The notes beneath the pieces were generated by a model, which made no database searches, was not told where the DNA came from, and was given only the letters and a program-made list of their open reading frames with translations. The position numbers and the translations under genes were made by a program. Below, piece by piece: positions 21,555-26,432 of a stretch of 37,692 nucleotides of DNA. Position 1 is the stretch's first letter. Each line of letters opens with the position of its first letter. This DNA comes from a virus (lineage: Duplodnaviria > Heunggongvirae > Uroviricota > Caudoviricetes): the IMG/VR virus record IMGVR_UViG_2645727775_000019, positions 1 through 37,692 of that record. One strand, given 5' to 3'.

Positions 21555-21827
21555 CTATTTGACTGCTGCCAGCAAAGCGTTACGGCGCATCTCGATACTT
21601 CGAATCCCCGCTTTGTCAATATTGCATTGTCCCAACGCCGAAAGCAGGCTCACATTCAGATCCAGACTGGCCCCATAGGTCAGCGGCTCGGGAATGACTG
21701 GCTGGGGAGTTTCAGTAGTCAGGCTTGCTGGCAACGGTACCGCCGGAATCGGTACGTAAACTGTTCGCGTACTTCCGCAACCGGTCAGCAGCGGCAGCAG
21801 GCACAGGGCGTACAGCACAATCATCAT
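21555..21827 (-). CDS. o-spanin (Rz1-like outer-membrane lipoprotein)
   Basis: Starts MMIVLYALCLLPLLTGC (lipobox LLTGC), Pro-rich mature part; other frame than Rz, overlapping its 3' end. Confidence 0.6.
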   Translation of the reverse strand: MMIVLYALCLLPLLTGCGSTRTVYVPIPAVPLPASLTTETPQPVIPEPLTYGASLDLNVSLLSALGQCNIDKAGIRSIEMRRNALLAAVK

Positions 21828-22104
21828 CCGCAACAGCCACTTTGATATCAGCCTGGGTTCTCTGTGACTCCAGTGCGATCTGCTGTTTTGCATGCTGGTT
21901 AGCCTCCAGAACTGTATTGACGATTTGCAGTGATTGCAGGACGTTATTGGTAATAGCGGTTGCCGATTCGGCATTTTGTACAGCCTCATCAGCACGTTTC
22001 TTTTCGCGCTGGTATTTGCTGTGGTAGTGGTTAGCTGACCAGACGAGAGAACCGAATAAAGTCAGGAGGAAAGCAGAAATAACCAGCTTATAGCGAAGTT
22101 TCAT
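21712..22104 (-). CDS. i-spanin (Rz-like)
   Basis: Start at MKLRYK with GGGGTGG site; N-terminal TM helix then helical periplasmic domain; follows endolysin. Confidence 0.6.
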   Translation of the reverse strand: MKLRYKLVISAFLLTLFGSLVWSANHYHSKYQREKKRADEAVQNAESATAITNNVLQSLQIVNTVLEANQHAKQQIALESQRTQADIKVAVADDDCAVRPVPAAAADRLRKYANSLRTDSGGTVASKPDY

Positions 22105-22564
22105 TAACCACCCCGCCAGCTTCTTTGAATTTGGCAATCAGACTATCGATCTTGTGTTCATACTGACCGTAGCCAGCACCGGGCAATGAAGCCCAAATAT
22201 TGCTGCAACGATCAATAGCCTGACGAATATCCCCCCGATCAATCAGCGGCAGCGCGCCGCGTTCTTTAATCTGCTGTAACGCCACCGCATCCTGGCTTTT
22301 CGGGGAGAAATCTTTCAGTCCAAGCTGTTTACGGTAGGCGTCCCACCATTTCGACAGCAGTTGATAACGCCCGGCGGCGGTGGATTTCAGTTTCGGGTTA
22401 AGCGTAACCAGCTTACGTGGATGATCGGAGTAATCAGTAAGCAGTTCGCCACCAACGATAACGTCATAACCATGATTTCTGGTCTTCTGCCATCCGTTAT
22501 CAGTTCCTTCTGACCACGCCAGCATATCGAGGAAGGCTTTACGCTGAGGATTAAGGTTTTGCAT
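22088..22564 (-). CDS. Endolysin, lambda R-like lytic transglycosylase
   Basis: 158 aa; QRKAFLDMLAWSEGTDNG...RYQLL...SQDAVALQQIKERGAL closely matches lambda R as recalled. Confidence 0.9.
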   Translation of the reverse strand: MQNLNPQRKAFLDMLAWSEGTDNGWQKTRNHGYDVIVGGELLTDYSDHPRKLVTLNPKLKSTAAGRYQLLSKWWDAYRKQLGLKDFSPKSQDAVALQQIKERGALPLIDRGDIRQAIDRCSNIWASLPGAGYGQYEHKIDSLIAKFKEAGGVVNETSL

Positions 22565-22868
22565 TTTTCACCCCTGTCAGTCGTTCCCAGAAGTAAGTCA
22601 GCGCAACTGAACCCATTGCACCGCTGATCCCTGCTGTGGCGAGAATCATGTAAATGCTAAATCCGCTTTCGATACTTATCAGGCCACCAATAACACCGGT
22701 AAAACCCGATACCACTATCTGAGCCAGAGCATTAATCCAGCTCCATGTTGCTTTGCTCTGCTTCACATCAATCAGGTAACGGACAAGCCCGCCCCAGCAC
22801 GCGAAGATCAGCAGAACGAGCCAGGACATCCCGGCAATGCTCTCTTTTTCGTGCATATGAATAGCCAT
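22551..22868 (-). CDS. Holin (non-lambda-S type) with possible dual-start motif
   Basis: 105 aa from MAIHMHEK; three hydrophobic segments; immediately upstream of endolysin. Confidence 0.7.
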   Translation of the reverse strand: MAIHMHEKESIAGMSWLVLLIFACWGGLVRYLIDVKQSKATWSWINALAQIVVSGFTGVIGGLISIESGFSIYMILATAGISGAMGSVALTYFWERLTGVKNAKP

Positions 22869-22897: not shown

Positions 22898-23395
22898 CTA
22901 AATGATAGGGAACAGACTCACGGGGTAATTTAACGACAAAGCACGGAGTTGAAGATCCCCACAAGCCTGGAATAAAAAAGCCAGCGACAGGCTGGCAATG
23001 TGAGGGTAACGCAAAGTGCTTAGAAACAAAAAAAGGCCGCCATCGGCGACCTTCGAGGTATCTAGCGTGCTGGATACTTTCAGCTTCGCCTTCAATTCAG
23101 CGTTGATTTCTTTCAGGCGATCAACATCGTTTTTAAGTTTTTCAATGTCTTGCCCTTTATTATCAAGGTCGCGCTGAAGACCTTTAATAATTTCTGTTTG
23201 GGCCGCCTGTACTTCTCGTGTCGTCTGGAGAGACTTATCAATATCATCAACTTGGTTAATCAAGCGTGTACCGAAAAAGCCTACAACTAACATAGTTATC
23301 CCAACCATAAAGTTGAGAACCCAGACTTTTGTTCCGGAAGCAGTGTTTGGAGTTTCGTCGATAAAGTGCACCTTATGCCAGTTAAAGTTACCCAA
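22898..23395 (-). CDS. Hypothetical membrane-anchored coiled-coil protein (cargo gene Y)
   Basis: TM segment VWVLNFMVGITMLVVGFFGT then heptad-like coiled coil; ORF-track start is TTG; 3' portion reads through the terminator hairpins so the true extent is uncertain. Confidence 0.45.
   Translation of the reverse strand: MGNFNWHKVHFIDETPNTASGTKVWVLNFMVGITMLVVGFFGTRLINQVDDIDKSLQTTREVQAAQTEIIKGLQRDLDNKGQDIEKLKNDVDRLKEINAELKAKLKVSSTLDTSKVADGGLFLFLSTLRYPHIASLSLAFLFQACGDLQLRALSLNYPVSLFPII
22971..23051 (-). terminator. Two tandem intrinsic terminator-like hairpins upstream of the holin
   Basis: Minus strand: GGTCGCCGATGGCGGCC then TTTTTTTG, and GCCAGCCTGTCGCTGGC then TTTTTTATT. Confidence 0.6.
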
Positions 23396-23482
23396 CGTCT
23401 GCGCAGATCGTTAGATTCGGCAACATTGTAACTGGATAAGGAATAGAAAACCTTGGAATTTTAAGAAGAAACTGATTGATCG

Positions 23483-23572
23483 ATTATTTAACGAGCGAAC
23501 ACATCCATACACCCCAGACGGGTACTACGACAAAGGCCATGAAATAAGTAACTTTTGCTTGAATGTTTTGCA
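23483..23572 (-). CDS. Candidate 29-aa hydrophobic peptide
   Basis: ATG preceded by AAGGAAG; MQNIQAKVTYFMAFVVVPVWGVWMCSLVK; in AT-rich leader upstream of gene Y, downstream of a TTGATG-17-TAATAT promoter-like site. Confidence 0.3.
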
Positions 23573-23759
23573 TTTCGCTTCCTTAGCAGTCCGATAAGTA
23601 CTGTCTGCTCATCCAACCTAACGAATGTAGATCAGAATGACAAGTCTTTCGCGCTAATTTCAATTTGATATCTGTTCGTAAACATGATGGCGCGAAATAT
23701 TACGCATGAAGTGCTTCTACATCAACATAAAAGTTACTTTTTTTGTGTTCACAGCATGT

Positions 23760-23788
23760 AAAGTAAAAGCCCCGCACGATGGCGAGGC
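23760..23788 (-). terminator. Intrinsic terminator-like hairpin downstream of cargo gene X
   Basis: Minus strand GCCTCGCCATCGTGCGGGGC followed by TTTTACTTT. Confidence 0.5.
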
Positions 23789-23854
23789 TGTTAATTCTTT
23801 GTCGACCAACAAAGCTATGGCGACGATATCAGATTTACATGAAATATAAGCGTT

Positions 23855-24520
23855 TCAGTTCGGTTTTGCAAGACTTACGTGCGAACTTGTCGCCTTTTGT
23901 TGTGAACGTGATCGCGTTACTGAGATAAGCGCACCGCTATCGAGTCGCATAAAGCAGCTACGCATTGCCAACCAGTGAGGCAGGTATGTCTCTGTCCAGG
24001 TGGATTTCGCCACGCCAACCAGTTCCGCCAGCTTCTGGTATTCGTAGGCATCTTTCCCGACCAACCCTGCTTTGACATCCTGCGCTGCCAGCCATATCAG
24101 CTTCTTCAGGCGCTCCATGGTCTTGCCTGCCACCCTCTTCGCGCCGAGATACCCCCTGAATTCAGACCACGCCCACTGGGTGATCGCCACCTGGTATTCA
24201 AAGCTGATGTTTTCACTGTAACTCCACAGCAACCACGCTTTCTGATGTTCTTCGAGAGACAGAACCGCGCGGCGCCATGAAGATGTTGAGAACTCAACCT
24301 GGCTGACCAGTGCAATGGATGAACCTTTTGCGTACGACTGCTTACCGGAAATCGGCGGATTATCCAGCGTAATCATCTTGCCCGTTACCTCATCCAGAAT
24401 GCGCGGCTTCTTTCGTTTATATGTACCAGTATCAAATTGTGCATGCTCCAGCCAGGCTTCAAGCTGTTCAACAGTCATACCAGGGTTAAAAAAATATGGC
24501 TGCTGCTTTTCGCCCTGCAT
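23855..24520 (-). CDS. Hypothetical protein (cargo gene X, 221 aa)
   Basis: Start at MQGEKQQPYFF with GGAGG site directly after the tR'-like terminator; the first 23 codons of the ORF-track version are the terminator hairpin itself; no family recognised by eye. Confidence 0.55.
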   Translation of the reverse strand: MQGEKQQPYFFNPGMTVEQLEAWLEHAQFDTGTYKRKKPRILDEVTGKMITLDNPPISGKQSYAKGSSIALVSQVEFSTSSWRRAVLSLEEHQKAWLLWSYSENISFEYQVAITQWAWSEFRGYLGAKRVAGKTMERLKKLIWLAAQDVKAGLVGKDAYEYQKLAELVGVAKSTWTETYLPHWLAMRSCFMRLDSGALISVTRSRSQQKATSSHVSLAKPN

Positions 24521-24531
24521 TATTGACCTCC

Positions 24532-24560
24532 AGAAAAGCAAAAACCCCGCCGAAGCGAGG
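24532..24560 (-). terminator. tR'-like intrinsic terminator just downstream of Q
   Basis: Minus strand CCTCGC-TTCG-GCGGGG hairpin followed by TTTTTGCTTTTCT. Confidence 0.65.
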
Positions 24561-24670
24561 TTTGTTATGATTTCGTTAACGGCAGACATACAAAGCCCAT
24601 CGTTAGGAGAATCCTAACCATATTTTTTGAAAAATGCAAGCATCATGTCGCCATCTTCGGCGAAAATCAT

Positions 24671-25423
24671 TTATCTTGTCACTTTTCTCAATTGTGTCTC
24701 TGCATATGCTTCTTCCTGCCAGCACTTTGTAACCAGTTTATCAATAACATCTGCATATCCTTTGTACCACTGATAATCCGTCAGGTCCGGTACCAGCTTC
24801 TGGACATGATGCCGCGCCAGTGTGGTTGGTAAACGGCTAAACCGGTTTCCATTGCAACGCCCACAAATCTTATAAACAGGCGTGCCATGAAGCCGGGTCC
24901 TTTTTTCATCCAGGACAATACCTTTACCCTTACACCCTCTGCACGCTGTGCTGACTTCTCCCTTACCATGACAATGCTGACATAGTTCCTTCACCCACTC
25001 CTCCTTGATAACAGATTCACCGCTTCTGGAGTGTTTCACCACTTCGCGCAATACATTATGAAATCCAGTACCTGCACAATGCTCACAGCGAGCCTTACTT
25101 GCCGCAGACCTGGAATAATCAGCAAAGGCAAAATTCACAAGGTAAGGGATGATCTGTAACCGGGTTTCTTCACTCAATTTGTTCAATGTCGGGTTATCCA
25201 GTGCCATCGCGTAATTGAGCAGACCTTCAATCGCAAATTGAGGATCCTGAACACCAACTTTTGCCAGGAATAAGGCAAACCCAAGCGGTGCTTTCGACTG
25301 CACCATCCCCTGCGCAGCCATCACATCCGTAATCGTTAAACCACCTGAGCCTGTCGCCGGTGCGTCATCGCTCAATTTTGGAGATTTTGGGGAGTAATAT
25401 TTTGGTAAGGCTTCAAGGTTCAT
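24671..25423 (-). CDS. Late-gene antiterminator Q (lambda-Q family, QuuQ-like)
   Basis: YYSPKSPKLSDDAPATG...TDVMAAQGM, FAFADYSRSAA, Cys-rich zinc-binding region and C-terminal ...RKVTR parallel lambda Q as recalled; ATG with GGAG site, 250 aa. Confidence 0.8.
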   Translation of the reverse strand: MNLEALPKYYSPKSPKLSDDAPATGSGGLTITDVMAAQGMVQSKAPLGFALFLAKVGVQDPQFAIEGLLNYAMALDNPTLNKLSEETRLQIIPYLVNFAFADYSRSAASKARCEHCAGTGFHNVLREVVKHSRSGESVIKEEWVKELCQHCHGKGEVSTACRGCKGKGIVLDEKRTRLHGTPVYKICGRCNGNRFSRLPTTLARHHVQKLVPDLTDYQWYKGYADVIDKLVTKCWQEEAYAETQLRKVTR

Positions 25424-25436
25424 GCTCGTTCTCCAC

Positions 25437-26432
25437 TTACGCCAATACGCCAATTGCCAGCGCACGATCGATAAAACGAAATATCAGCTCCAGCTGGGAG
25501 CCATACTTCTCTTCAAATGCCACGGTATCCGCATGCAGCTCGTCGTGATGCTTTCTGCACAAAGGCAACACAAAGAGGTCATGCGCTTTTGTACCCATTC
25601 CCCCCTGACCGTGACCTATCAGGTGGTGGGGATCATCAGCGGGCTTTCCACAACATGCACACGGCTGTGTCTTAACCCAGCGCGTGTACTTTTCATTAAC
25701 CCAGCGGCGACGTTTTGGGCGTAACATAAAAGACTCCGGCGACTCCGGATCCACTTTCAGCGCCAGCACCTTTTTCGCTTTATCTTGGATGATGCTGGTG
25801 GCAGGAACCGAAGGCACAAGGTCACTTTCCCGGGTGACAGACGGCACAACAGGTTTCGGTAATCTCAGCGCCTTACGGGCTGCGCTTTCAGGTAAGGCAT
25901 CCGCCAGGTCATTACGAATCAGCCACCAGCACAGTTCCGGCATTGTCACGGCATGGTTATCATCAAAACCGAGATCCCGACGGACTACAGACAACACCCA
26001 GCGGGCACAGTTATCCGTTGCCATTGATTCCAGCCGTTCCGTGAACTGATCGCGCAGCTGGTTATCGCAGTGCCAGCACAGACGGATTGCGCCCGGAGCG
26101 TGTCGCATTGTTGTCATGTTCTCGCTGTGCCAGTCGGAATGAAGCCACTGGCAGCCTTTTTCACGAAGTAACCAGCTTTCAAGACATTCCACGCCACCAG
26201 CACGACGGATCACTGCCTCATTGCGGAACACGGCCCGAACGGCAGGATCATCCGCCAGCGGTTGTGATGCCGCGGGAACGGCACCACTGGCGAAAGATGA
26301 ATAACGTTCCGGCTCAGGCTCCAGCAGGACACGCCCCTGCATAAACAAGGGCATCAGCTCTGAACCTGGCCTGAACAATACGATCCCCATACGCGGGGCA
26401 ATTTCAGGGGTCAGTAGTGCTCTCACGGTCAC
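25437..26432 (-). CDS. DUF968-family protein (YdfU-like) with C-terminal Cys/His HNH-like motif
   Basis: 331 aa; C-terminal CACCGKPADDPHHL...CRKHHDELH; located upstream of Q as ydfU is upstream of quuQ in Qin-type prophages. Confidence 0.65.
   Translation of the reverse strand: MTVRALLTPEIAPRMGIVLFRPGSELMPLFMQGRVLLEPEPERYSSFASGAVPAASQPLADDPAVRAVFRNEAVIRRAGGVECLESWLLREKGCQWLHSDWHSENMTTMRHAPGAIRLCWHCDNQLRDQFTERLESMATDNCARWVLSVVRRDLGFDDNHAVTMPELCWWLIRNDLADALPESAARKALRLPKPVVPSVTRESDLVPSVPATSIIQDKAKKVLALKVDPESPESFMLRPKRRRWVNEKYTRWVKTQPCACCGKPADDPHHLIGHGQGGMGTKAHDLFVLPLCRKHHDELHADTVAFEEKYGSQLELIFRFIDRALAIGVLA

Follow-up and report, generated by a model that had tools for sequence, protein, structure and literature searches.

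We describe here a two-gene cassette, at about 23725..23028, in a stretch of 37,692 nucleotides (nt) from a tailed virus (Caudoviricetes; IMG/VR record IMGVR_UViG_2645727775_000019, positions 1 to 37,692), which we refer to in full as the window. The cassette and the neighbouring features discussed below are all on the minus strand, and all coordinates are those of the whole stretch. The cassette stands at the late-gene junction of a lambdoid prophage, after the gene of the late antiterminator Q and a short IsrJ-like RNA, and before the gene of a LydA-type holin. Read in this direction, it consists of a promoter, a structured leader, a gene for a membrane peptide (gene 1), a spacer that folds over the ribosome site of the next gene, and a gene for a membrane-anchored coiled-coil protein (gene 2), whose conserved part has no canonical start codon and no stop codon. 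The original prediction for this DNA, made from the letters and the open reading frames (ORFs), had pointed to the peptide, the coiled-coil protein and their promoter; it did not include the terminator inside the second ORF, the non-AUG start, the hairpin over the ribosome site or the IsrJ-type element upstream.

The comparisons draw on 62 usable cassette loci, 37 of them distinct in sequence, from genomes of Klebsiella, Serratia, Enterobacter and Raoultella and from 50 IMG/VR viral contigs; single loci are cited by their labels, the L-numbers. Gene 1 (23573..23484) encodes a peptide of 29 residues with a single transmembrane (TM) span, MQNIQAKVTYFMAFVVVPVWGVWMCSLVK, recognized by its ORF, its Shine-Dalgarno (SD) sequence and its conservation. 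In the window the SD sequence is TAAGGA, at 23585..23580, 6 nt upstream of the start codon. The gene has exactly 29 codons in all 62 scorable loci, it starts with ATG or TTG at 7-9 nt past the AGG of the SD, and its products share the family motif M/L-N-x-I/L-Q ... P[VAS]WG[VIFM]W..SL[VI]K, which is followed directly by the stop codon. The one hydrophobic span has a Kyte-Doolittle value of 1.94. Purifying selection on the peptide is evident from the ratio of nonsynonymous to synonymous polymorphisms (pN/pS), which is 0.29 overall, and from the corresponding ratio of substitutions (dN/dS), which is ~0.1 for closer or moderately diverged pairs. The hydrophobic 29-residue ORF and its ribosome binding site had thus been predicted correctly; the absence of the ORF from related prophages had been named as the observation that would speak against the module, and it proved to be conserved in all the scorable ones. 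It is without RefSeq annotation in this locus, and exact look-up elsewhere returns only sporadic calls as 'hypothetical protein'.

Gene 2 has a conserved core of 112 codons (23362..23027), as delimited by analyses of protein alignment, selection, start codons, AlphaFold2 models and heptads. The core opens with the ATC start and a 12-residue tail, continues through a TM helix (~residues 13-31) and ~nine heptads, and closes with a C-terminus that is encoded by the terminator hairpin and its run of T residues (T-run). Among homologues, ~108-110 codons align almost gap-free. The single TM segment scores 2.05 on the Kyte-Doolittle scale over 19 residues, and the coiled coil keeps one unbroken heptad register over ~67 columns, with Leu, Ile, Val or Met at a fraction of 0.60-0.64 in the a and d positions against 0.08-0.11 elsewhere. 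The AlphaFold2 model is a single helix covering residues 7-106 with a mean predicted local distance difference test score of 74, as would fit the single TM helix and long heptad coiled coil that had been read from the window. Both the TM and the coiled-coil parts are under purifying selection, with pN/pS of 0.33-0.39 in frame versus at least 1 in both other frames. The product is probably a bitopic protein of ~110 residues that forms a parallel dimer. In one IMG/VR copy, L051:2991-3321, the conserved N-terminal tail is lost to an indel close to the gene-2 start (TKLQILLLEQKYGL...), and this cassette is probably pseudogenised.

The beginning of gene 2 is unusual. The ORF as listed starts with TTG at 23395, and this has to be corrected, for the conserved coding starts at the ATC codon at 23362. 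Throughout the family the conserved coding begins at an invariant UAU(A/C), where the codon is ATA in 34 of the 37 distinct sequences and ATC in the other 3, which make up the clade of the window. The distance from the AGG of a conserved SD to this codon is 8-9 nt, and gene 1 is arranged in the same way. Codons 7-18, which lie before the first conserved Met, have a pN/pS of 0.37 in frame versus 1.1-1.2 off frame. No in-frame ATG, GTG or TTG occurs between the upstream stop and the AUA or AUC codon in 13 of the 37 sequences, representing at least six lineages, and in L058-L060 the upstream in-frame stop lies one codon before the gene-2 start. This comparison makes AUA or AUC the most probable initiation codon of gene 2. 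The internal Met, M19, was considered as the true start and was rejected: purifying selection acts on the codons before it, L003, L014 and L017 have Leu in its place, and a start there would truncate the TM helix. In the window, the GTG at 23371 that is the start given by the Prokaryotic Genome Annotation Pipeline is three codons before the ATC and overlaps the SD; it is GTA in the sister Klebsiella clade. Near-cognate AUA and AUC codons are known to initiate at ~1-2% (0.02-3%) of the level of AUG in E. coli (bioRxiv 10.1101/063800).

The ribosome site of gene 2 is also predicted to be occluded. The spacer between the two genes is near-constant in length, at 119-125 nt (121 nt in the window) with a single outlier of 143. 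An anti-SD strand in it, CCUUAUCCAGUUA (23441..23429), is paired with 23384..23371 by unconstrained folds of the window, and almost every other lineage gives the same pairing. The partner is the SD strand UAACUGGCAUAAGG, seen both in folds and by comparison, which holds the gene-2 SD, AUAAGG, 8 nt before the start. Within the helix of these two strands is an inner hairpin, AACGAUCUGCGCAGACGUU (23412..23394), which was the only element recovered by RNAalifold on the MAFFT alignment; 97% of its cells are paired and 6 of its 8 pairs show compensatory changes. The anti-SD:SD helix itself came out of folding the sequences one by one. Its free energy in the window is -16.0 kcal/mol (z=-4.7 relative to shuffled sequences), and in most clades it is -13 to -20 kcal/mol (z of about -4 to -6.5), and the bases adjoining the SD co-vary among lineages as GCA/UGC, ACA/UGU and CCA/UGG. 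By the partition function, the gene-2 SD has a mean unpaired probability of 0.12 (0.00-0.29) over 18 lineages and 0.20 in the window; the mean for the gene-1 SD is 0.41 (0.05-0.65), with 0.26 in the window. The DNA upstream of the gene-2 start is conserved, yet it is read in different frames among the clades, and is therefore conserved as RNA and not as protein.

The end of gene 2 has a similar peculiarity. An intrinsic terminator of 10 pairs is called within the gene-2 frame, its stem-loop at 23054..23032 and its T-run at 23034..23028. Each of the 31 distinct sequences compared has the hairpin and T-run inside the frame; the hairpin occurs in at least four versions that differ in sequence, with energies of -7.7 to -15.4 kcal/mol, and the first in-frame stop comes 8-167 nt beyond the T-run. 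The conservation of the protein ends exactly at the T-run; what follows are C-terminal tails that are unrelated between lineages. In the window the tail takes up ~43 codons (23026..22898, with the stop at 22900..22898), passes a second, backbone terminator as well, and ends 29 nt before the ATG of the holin gene. The last ~43 codons of the listed ORF (23395..22898) are thus a read-through of two terminators into the backbone and lie outside the conserved protein; the tail DNA at ~23011..22971 is backbone that is non-coding in KFu022, a related E. coli prophage that lacks the cassette. Assuming that the terminator works, the mRNA of gene 2 would have no in-frame stop before its 3' end, in the manner of arfA. 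Slippage or frameshifting at the T-run towards a conserved stop was rejected as a way out: the +1 and +2 stops are close in some lineages and 28-490 nt off in others. The arbitrariness of the annotated C-termini can be seen in P0005, a close homologue of gene 2, where the T-run has another length, the frame shifts after the terminator, and the ORF runs across the region before the holin and into the holin start (…GGKIMAIHMHEKESIAGMS). In Enterobacter sp. C2 (L012:4253-4309), the cassette terminator GCCACCTTCGGGTGGC is followed 14 nt on by a second hairpin, GAAGGCTGCCAACTGGCGGCCTTTT, which is very similar to the terminator that cassettes of the window's clade have; terminators in tandem may be ancestral to the cassette, or the clades of L012 and of the window may have recombined.

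The cassette also appears to have a promoter of its own. In the window, it reads TTGATG-17-TAATAT (23725..23697) followed by a GC-rich discriminator, cgCGCC, with a transcription start predicted near 23689. The sequence and the place of this promoter had been given correctly by the original prediction; its description as near-consensus holds for other lineages, most of which match the sigma-70 consensus at 10-11 of 12 positions, and not for the window. The family consensus is TTGATA-16/17-TATAAT, then gcCGCGCCAT. The promoter is kept at the same position with a match of at least 9/12 in 16 of 18 representative lineages, many of them at 11/12, and in the distant lineages L012 and L006 both promoter and terminator were called independently by the scan. 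The discriminator CGCGCC after the promoter (23696-23688 in the window) is invariant in all aligned loci and is of the type typical of promoters down-regulated by guanosine tetraphosphate (ppGpp) and DksA; through it, the expression of the peptide may follow the growth rate. The leader that follows (23689..23574, 116 nt) shows conserved blocks in the alignment and, in per-sequence minimum-free-energy folds, a large hairpin ending immediately 5' to the SD of the peptide gene. Across loci the leader is 111-146 nt long, and the SD is conserved as CUAAGGA.

Evidence for the mobility of the cassette comes from its boundaries. The ~1-kb interval between Q and holin is 100% identical to that of E. 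coli 2012C-4221, where RefSeq annotates one 'hypothetical protein' only. In KFu022, the end of Q and the IsrJ-like RNA are the same, and they are followed by ~75 nt, a terminator identical to that at 22996..22980, and the holin; those ~75 nt are replaced in the window by ~750 bp, at roughly 23765..23012. The insert is carried by 3 of 5426 complete E. coli genomes, and it is missing from KFu022 and other E. coli prophages. The lineages are homologous from the -35 element to the T-run and not beyond. The GC content is 0.38-0.43 in the cassette versus ~0.48-0.56 in the flanks, which bears out the AT-richness remarked on earlier. A megablast search with the DNA gave matches to the Q end and the backbone only. 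The cassette is thus present or absent at the same site among relatives, has its own promoter and terminator, and deviates in base composition. By these sequence criteria it would be a moron, a known category of phage gene, here with uncharacterised proteins and an unusual combination of locks.

The distribution of the cassette is wide, and its place is constant. Relatives from Salmonella and Kosakonia were seen among the protein matches. The nearest large ORF upstream is a Q antiterminator in ~57 of the 62 loci, ending 280-450 nt before the peptide gene, and these Q proteins are of at least four types: PF06323, PF03589, PF06530/DUF1133 and an unannotated type of 214-223 residues. The holins downstream come from five families (PF16083, PF04971, PF05106, PF16931 with PF05449), and in the Serratia clade a methyltransferase gene is placed between the cassette and the holin. 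The near-identical cassettes of L017, L018 and L019 adjoin three different holin families, and a single cassette clade can be found behind differing Q types. The same cassettes with different holins and Q types point to an independent mosaic unit, yet one that is always in this one slot. Other genes use the slot, too. There are tRNA genes between cassette and holin in some loci (L026:3705-4251; L033:3349-3420), L026 also having a match to the small RNA (sRNA) STnc100, and the Q-to-S slot holds tRNAs in E. coli M37H (match H15) and in Shiga toxin (Stx) phages as well.

Searches with the products of the cassette gave relatives and little else. Gene 2 has relatives in 16 clusters among 5.8 billion proteins, and a search of 1.84 billion cluster representatives with its hidden Markov model (HMM) profile gave 17 clusters at E<1e-10, followed by a weak tail of unrelated TM-plus-coil proteins. 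A tblastn search of 50,697 deposited phage genomes with gene 2 gave no match. Pfam and NCBIfam returned sub-threshold coiled-coil noise and no significant match, the NCBIfam model phage_LysB (TIGR03495) scoring 15.8 bits against gene 2 (E=0.013) where the cut-off is 92.75. PADLOC-DB 2.0 gave no match to a defence family, with best E values of 0.0087-0.048 that were all coiled-coil noise. Compared to the PDB sequences, the gene-2 profile found generic coiled coils only (Abraxas, GCN4, geminin), and a Foldseek search of the PDB with the AlphaFold2 model found no match, as expected of a single long helix. The best match of gene 2 is a weak one to the Rz-like spanin family phrog_739, from two divergent members (E=1.6e-4 and 1.1e-3). 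The remark that the products belong to no recognised family is therefore upheld in Pfam, NCBIfam, PADLOC, PDB and Foldseek, and a known function for the second gene, which had been named as the other observation that would overturn the idea, came no nearer than this spanin match. The accession WP_032172870 was not found mentioned in the searchable literature.

The genes around the cassette are those of the phage backbone, in the order PF06323-type Q, the ~1-kb interval, LydA-type holin, GH24 lysozyme, DUF2570/Rz and Rz1, HNH endonuclease, and terminase. The late antiterminator Q of the PF06323 type (24589..23855; Pfam E=3.4e-80) has a RefSeq equivalent named 'bacteriophage antitermination protein Q'. 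Upstream of it is another antiterminator of a different family, PF03589 'Antiterm', with 264 residues and a DnaJ-type zinc-finger region (25465..24671), so that the window holds a tandem pair (25465-23855) in which the PF06323 Q of 244 residues directly follows; E. coli 2012C-4221 has ylcG and rusA upstream of a single Q and no such pair. Downstream are the backbone terminator (22996..22980), which was called as an intrinsic terminator and occurs in KFu022 as well, the PF16083 holin of the LydA type (22868..22551; Pfam E=1.8e-22) and, beyond the lysozyme, the window's own Rz and Rz1 (22137..21712; Pfam and RefSeq). The placement directly before these lysis genes is as the original prediction had it. 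The holin gene has in-frame ATGs at 22868 and 22856, the RefSeq coding sequence beginning at 22856; this dual ATG three codons apart (22868-22854, MAIHMHEK...) recalls the S107/S105 dual start of the lambda holin and antiholin.

Between Q and the cassette there are two further backbone elements. A promoter-like site, TTGCAA-17-TATATT (23871..23843), overlaps the end of Q; it matches at 9/12 and is the only promoter call of the region. It is followed by an IsrJ-family short RNA (23839..23766; Rfam RF01393), which aligns over the full length (1-75) with 64.9 bits, above the gathering score of 37, and is closed by an intrinsic terminator called at 23789..23768. Membership in the IsrJ family is a property of this flanking element and not of the cassette, and the element is phage backbone: it is present in the cassette-free KFu022 (L002) and at PF06323-Q loci of any cassette clade. 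The IsrJ of Gifsy-1 is a constitutive short RNA of ~74 nt located between a Q-like gene and the lysis genes (PMC4825925; PMC7067206). The TTGCAA-17-TATATT site is probably the Q-dependent late promoter, the equivalent of pR'. The IsrJ-like matches go together with PF06323-type Q irrespective of the downstream genes, from which we infer that the element is the short terminated transcript of the late promoter, the counterpart of lambda pR'-tR'. They travel with this type of Q in L002, L003, L017 and L029, and the RNA begins with UGUAAAU, which is similar to an extended -10 element and would be in keeping with a sigma-dependent pause site at which Q is loaded. IsrJ may simply be the pR'-tR' leader RNA of the PF06323 Q family.

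Taken together, these features can be read as a mobile moron whose main product in the lysogen is the peptide, with gene 2 kept near-silent until late read-through. We give this reading about an even chance of being correct. It places the cassette in a slot just 3' of a Q-dependent late promoter and terminator and just 5' of the lysis genes in lambdoid prophages of Enterobacterales. In the lysogen, the cassette promoter would produce an mRNA of ~660 nt ending at the cassette terminator, with the backbone terminator giving further insulation to the lysis genes. The peptide would be translated freely from its ordinary ribosome site. Gene 2 would be throttled by the occlusion of its SD and by the near-cognate AUA start (AUC in the window), and the few ribosomes that did enter it would run off the stop-less 3' end and call in transfer-messenger RNA (tmRNA) for tagging and proteolysis. 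The classic route to ssrA-tagged proteins is reportedly a gene whose terminator precedes its stop codon, as in the work of Keiler, Waller and Sauer in 1996. Since transcripts ended by the cassette terminator have no stop codon, the product made from them should be tagged by tmRNA and degraded.

Upon induction, the situation would be reversed. RNA polymerase modified by Q at the late promoter would ignore both tR' and the cassette terminator, and the message would now include an in-frame stop. The read-through mRNA of gene 2 would be made in quantity along with the holin, endolysin and spanin genes, and the protein would accumulate. An alternative trigger may be a ribosome coupled tightly to the polymerase, which would block the formation of the hairpin and allow transcription from the cassette promoter to continue towards the holin. 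The heavy repression of gene 2 suggests that its protein is costly to the cell, and the weak resemblance to an inner-membrane spanin (i-spanin) suggests that it acts at the envelope. We may speculate that the coiled-coil protein is an effector of the lytic phase that acts on the envelope and is either harmful or sensitive to timing, and that the peptide, always present in the membrane, is its partner or antagonist.

A number of points weigh against this reading. The promoter of the window itself matches the sigma-70 consensus at 8/12, and the scan tool made no call on it because this is below its threshold of 9/12. Some canonical start is present upstream of the AUA or AUC codon in 24 of the 37 sequences, at positions that are inconsistent; initiation in the window could possibly be at GTG 23371, and the start could differ between lineages. 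For the duplex over the gene-2 SD, the z values are only +0.2 to -2.5 in a Serratia-type clade and in L020, with the SD still predicted to be paired, and the column-wise covariation of the helix is modest (73% paired, two pairs with double changes) because the register of the helix shifts between clades. In the window the two SDs are nearly alike in their predicted accessibility (0.26 for gene 1, 0.20 for gene 2). The flanking charges give no call of membrane topology. Finally, the products of read-through would end in tails of 3-55 residues with arbitrary sequence, unexpected in a functional form; the terminated, stop-less form may be the relevant one, being released by ArfA or acting while it is tagged.

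There is also a more radical version, in which gene 2, for a membrane effector, is a natural triple-locked switch of a sort that phages have not so far been described to have. Its AUA start, its anti-SD hairpin and its lack of a stop would together ensure that a stable protein is made only if termination is overridden, through polymerase modified by Q or through a ribosome in tight coupling, or if ribosome rescue or the fidelity of initiation factor 3 (IF3) fails. The peptide, made constitutively, would be the cognate membrane antagonist, and the cassette would represent a new class of lysis-phase or suicide trigger that senses the state of transcription and translation. We hold this version to be doubtful.

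The other explanations differ from the proposed moron with a near-silent gene 2 in what they take the cassette to be for. That the module is self-contained, orphan and membrane-directed has been borne out; the sequence does not choose among the toxin, abortive-infection and lysis-regulator roles suggested at the outset. One explanation is a moron for superinfection exclusion or anti-phage defence, in which the peptide, alone or together with small amounts of the coiled-coil protein, blocks DNA entry or triggers abortive infection at the inner membrane. Known exclusion proteins are often small inner-membrane proteins, and both products here are predicted membrane proteins, under a conserved and constitutive-looking promoter with a terminator, as in typical morons, in a slot that other accessory genes and tRNAs of lambdoid phages use as well. 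A defence role, however, finds no family match in PADLOC, and it leaves unexplained both the triple throttling of gene 2 and the restriction of the cassette to the place between Q and the lysis genes; we consider it possible, but on the unlikely side. Another explanation is a lysis accessory or regulator. Here, a spanin- or antiholin-like coiled-coil protein would tune the timing of lysis, modulated by the peptide, and the promoter would be secondary. The cassette is directly upstream of the holin and would share the late-gene transcript; gene 2 has the i-spanin architecture of an N-terminal TM anchor and coiled coil, as far as predicted structure goes, and its weak matches are to the Rz-like spanin phrog_739 and to phage_LysB. 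Those matches are, however, below the curated cut-offs and fit a generic similarity of TM-plus-coiled-coil proteins, and every host phage already has its own spanins. As the cassette stands beside five unrelated holin families, no single type of holin can be its partner; in Serratia a methyltransferase gene intervenes, and a promoter and terminator of its own are abnormal for lysis genes. We find a lysis regulator rather improbable. The more specific assignments were rejected: gene 2 as a spanin, for its sub-threshold scores, its lack of a lipoprotein partner, its position on the wrong side of the holin and the presence of Rz/Rz1 in the phage; an embedded or adjacent outer-membrane spanin, for none of the 37 sequences has an ORF with a lipobox in the gene-2 region, whatever the frame; and gene 2 as a holin or antiholin, as there is no match to a holin in Pfam or PHROG.

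The remaining two explanations are much less probable. The size and hydrophobicity of the peptide match those of type I toxins, the leader is long and structured, and the cassette is mobile, all of which would suit a stabilisation module akin to a type I toxin-antitoxin (TA) system with the peptide as an RNA-controlled membrane toxin. Over 18 lineages, however, there is no conserved antisense promoter on the opposite strand, and no Rfam antitoxin RNA was found; the SD of the peptide is not consistently occluded and the promoter matches at 10-11/12 in most lineages, which for a toxin should be lethal. We regard such a module as very unlikely. Even harder to believe is that the true protein is the full annotated ORF of 157-165 residues with its hydrophobic C-terminal tail, and that the hairpins within it look like terminators but do not act as such. 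The frame is indeed open to 22898, and RefSeq has a protein of 157 residues, WP_032172870.1. Against this, conservation stops at the T-run and the tails of homologues are unrelated, the DNA of the tail is backbone and non-coding in a prophage without the cassette, and none of the 31 sequences has lost the hairpin or the T-run, though the hairpin sequence has changed.

The cassette shares one or more of its features with several known systems, and it differs from each. The lambdoid morons (bor and lom of lambda, gp15 of HK97, and the stx operon in the same Q-to-S interval) are likewise extra blocks with their own promoter and terminator and a deviant composition, placed between backbone genes, absent from close relatives and covered by late read-through transcription. 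The proteins of the cassette, however, are unrelated to any described moron product, and gene 2 is not simply expressed, given its occluded SD, its near-cognate start and the lack of a stop before the terminator. The closest analogue in architecture is the isrK-orf45-anrP-isrJ locus of Gifsy-1, which also lies between a Q-like antiterminator and the lysis genes and in which a promoter and a small ORF precede a second gene whose message is made but, owing to mRNA structure, is translationally silent (PMC4825925). An IsrJ-type RNA neighbours both, upstream of the cassette in the case of the window. No sequence relationship between the two was detected, however; AnrP is a soluble antirepressor and not a membrane protein, and the activation by the trans-acting sRNA IsrK has no counterpart among the RNAs identified for the cassette. 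Rz-type i-spanins such as lambda Rz and P2 LysB likewise have an N-terminal TM segment and a long coiled coil in ~110-150 residues and are encoded near the lysis genes; gene 2, in contrast, is upstream of the holin and not downstream of the endolysin, and has its own promoter and terminator.

At the level of expression, the likenesses are to different genes. In E. coli, infC and pcnB have an AUU start behind a good SD, and their translation is low and sensitive to IF3; in gene 2 the codon would be AUA or AUC and not AUU, judging from the comparative analysis. The stop-less end of the arfA message is made largely by RNase III cleavage. In the cassette, an intrinsic terminator would make it. In both cases the mRNA would be stop-less, and arfA is a natural gene in which this is brought about via a 3' hairpin and the product is kept low by tmRNA tagging (PMC10107115). 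The type I TA systems hok/sok and tisB/istR-1 also combine a small hydrophobic peptide with a long structured mRNA and an occluded SD, whereas the cassette has neither antisense RNA nor antisense promoter, and its occluded gene is that of the coiled-coil protein and not that of the peptide.

The cassette adds an unannotated, conserved membrane protein of 29 residues and an orphan coiled-coil family to the pool of accessory genes in prophages of Enterobacterales, and it does so in the very slot where the Shiga toxin genes sit in other lambdoid phages. If initiation at AUA or AUC is true, gene 2 would be among very few natural enterobacterial genes that are started this way. The stop-less design, if it is functional, would be a natural counterpart of the laboratory constructs behind the discovery of ssrA tagging, one in which the stability of a protein would be tied directly to Q antitermination or to ribosome rescue. 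A phenotype of the cassette, be it in lysis timing, exclusion or toxicity, could reveal a new function at the level of the membrane.

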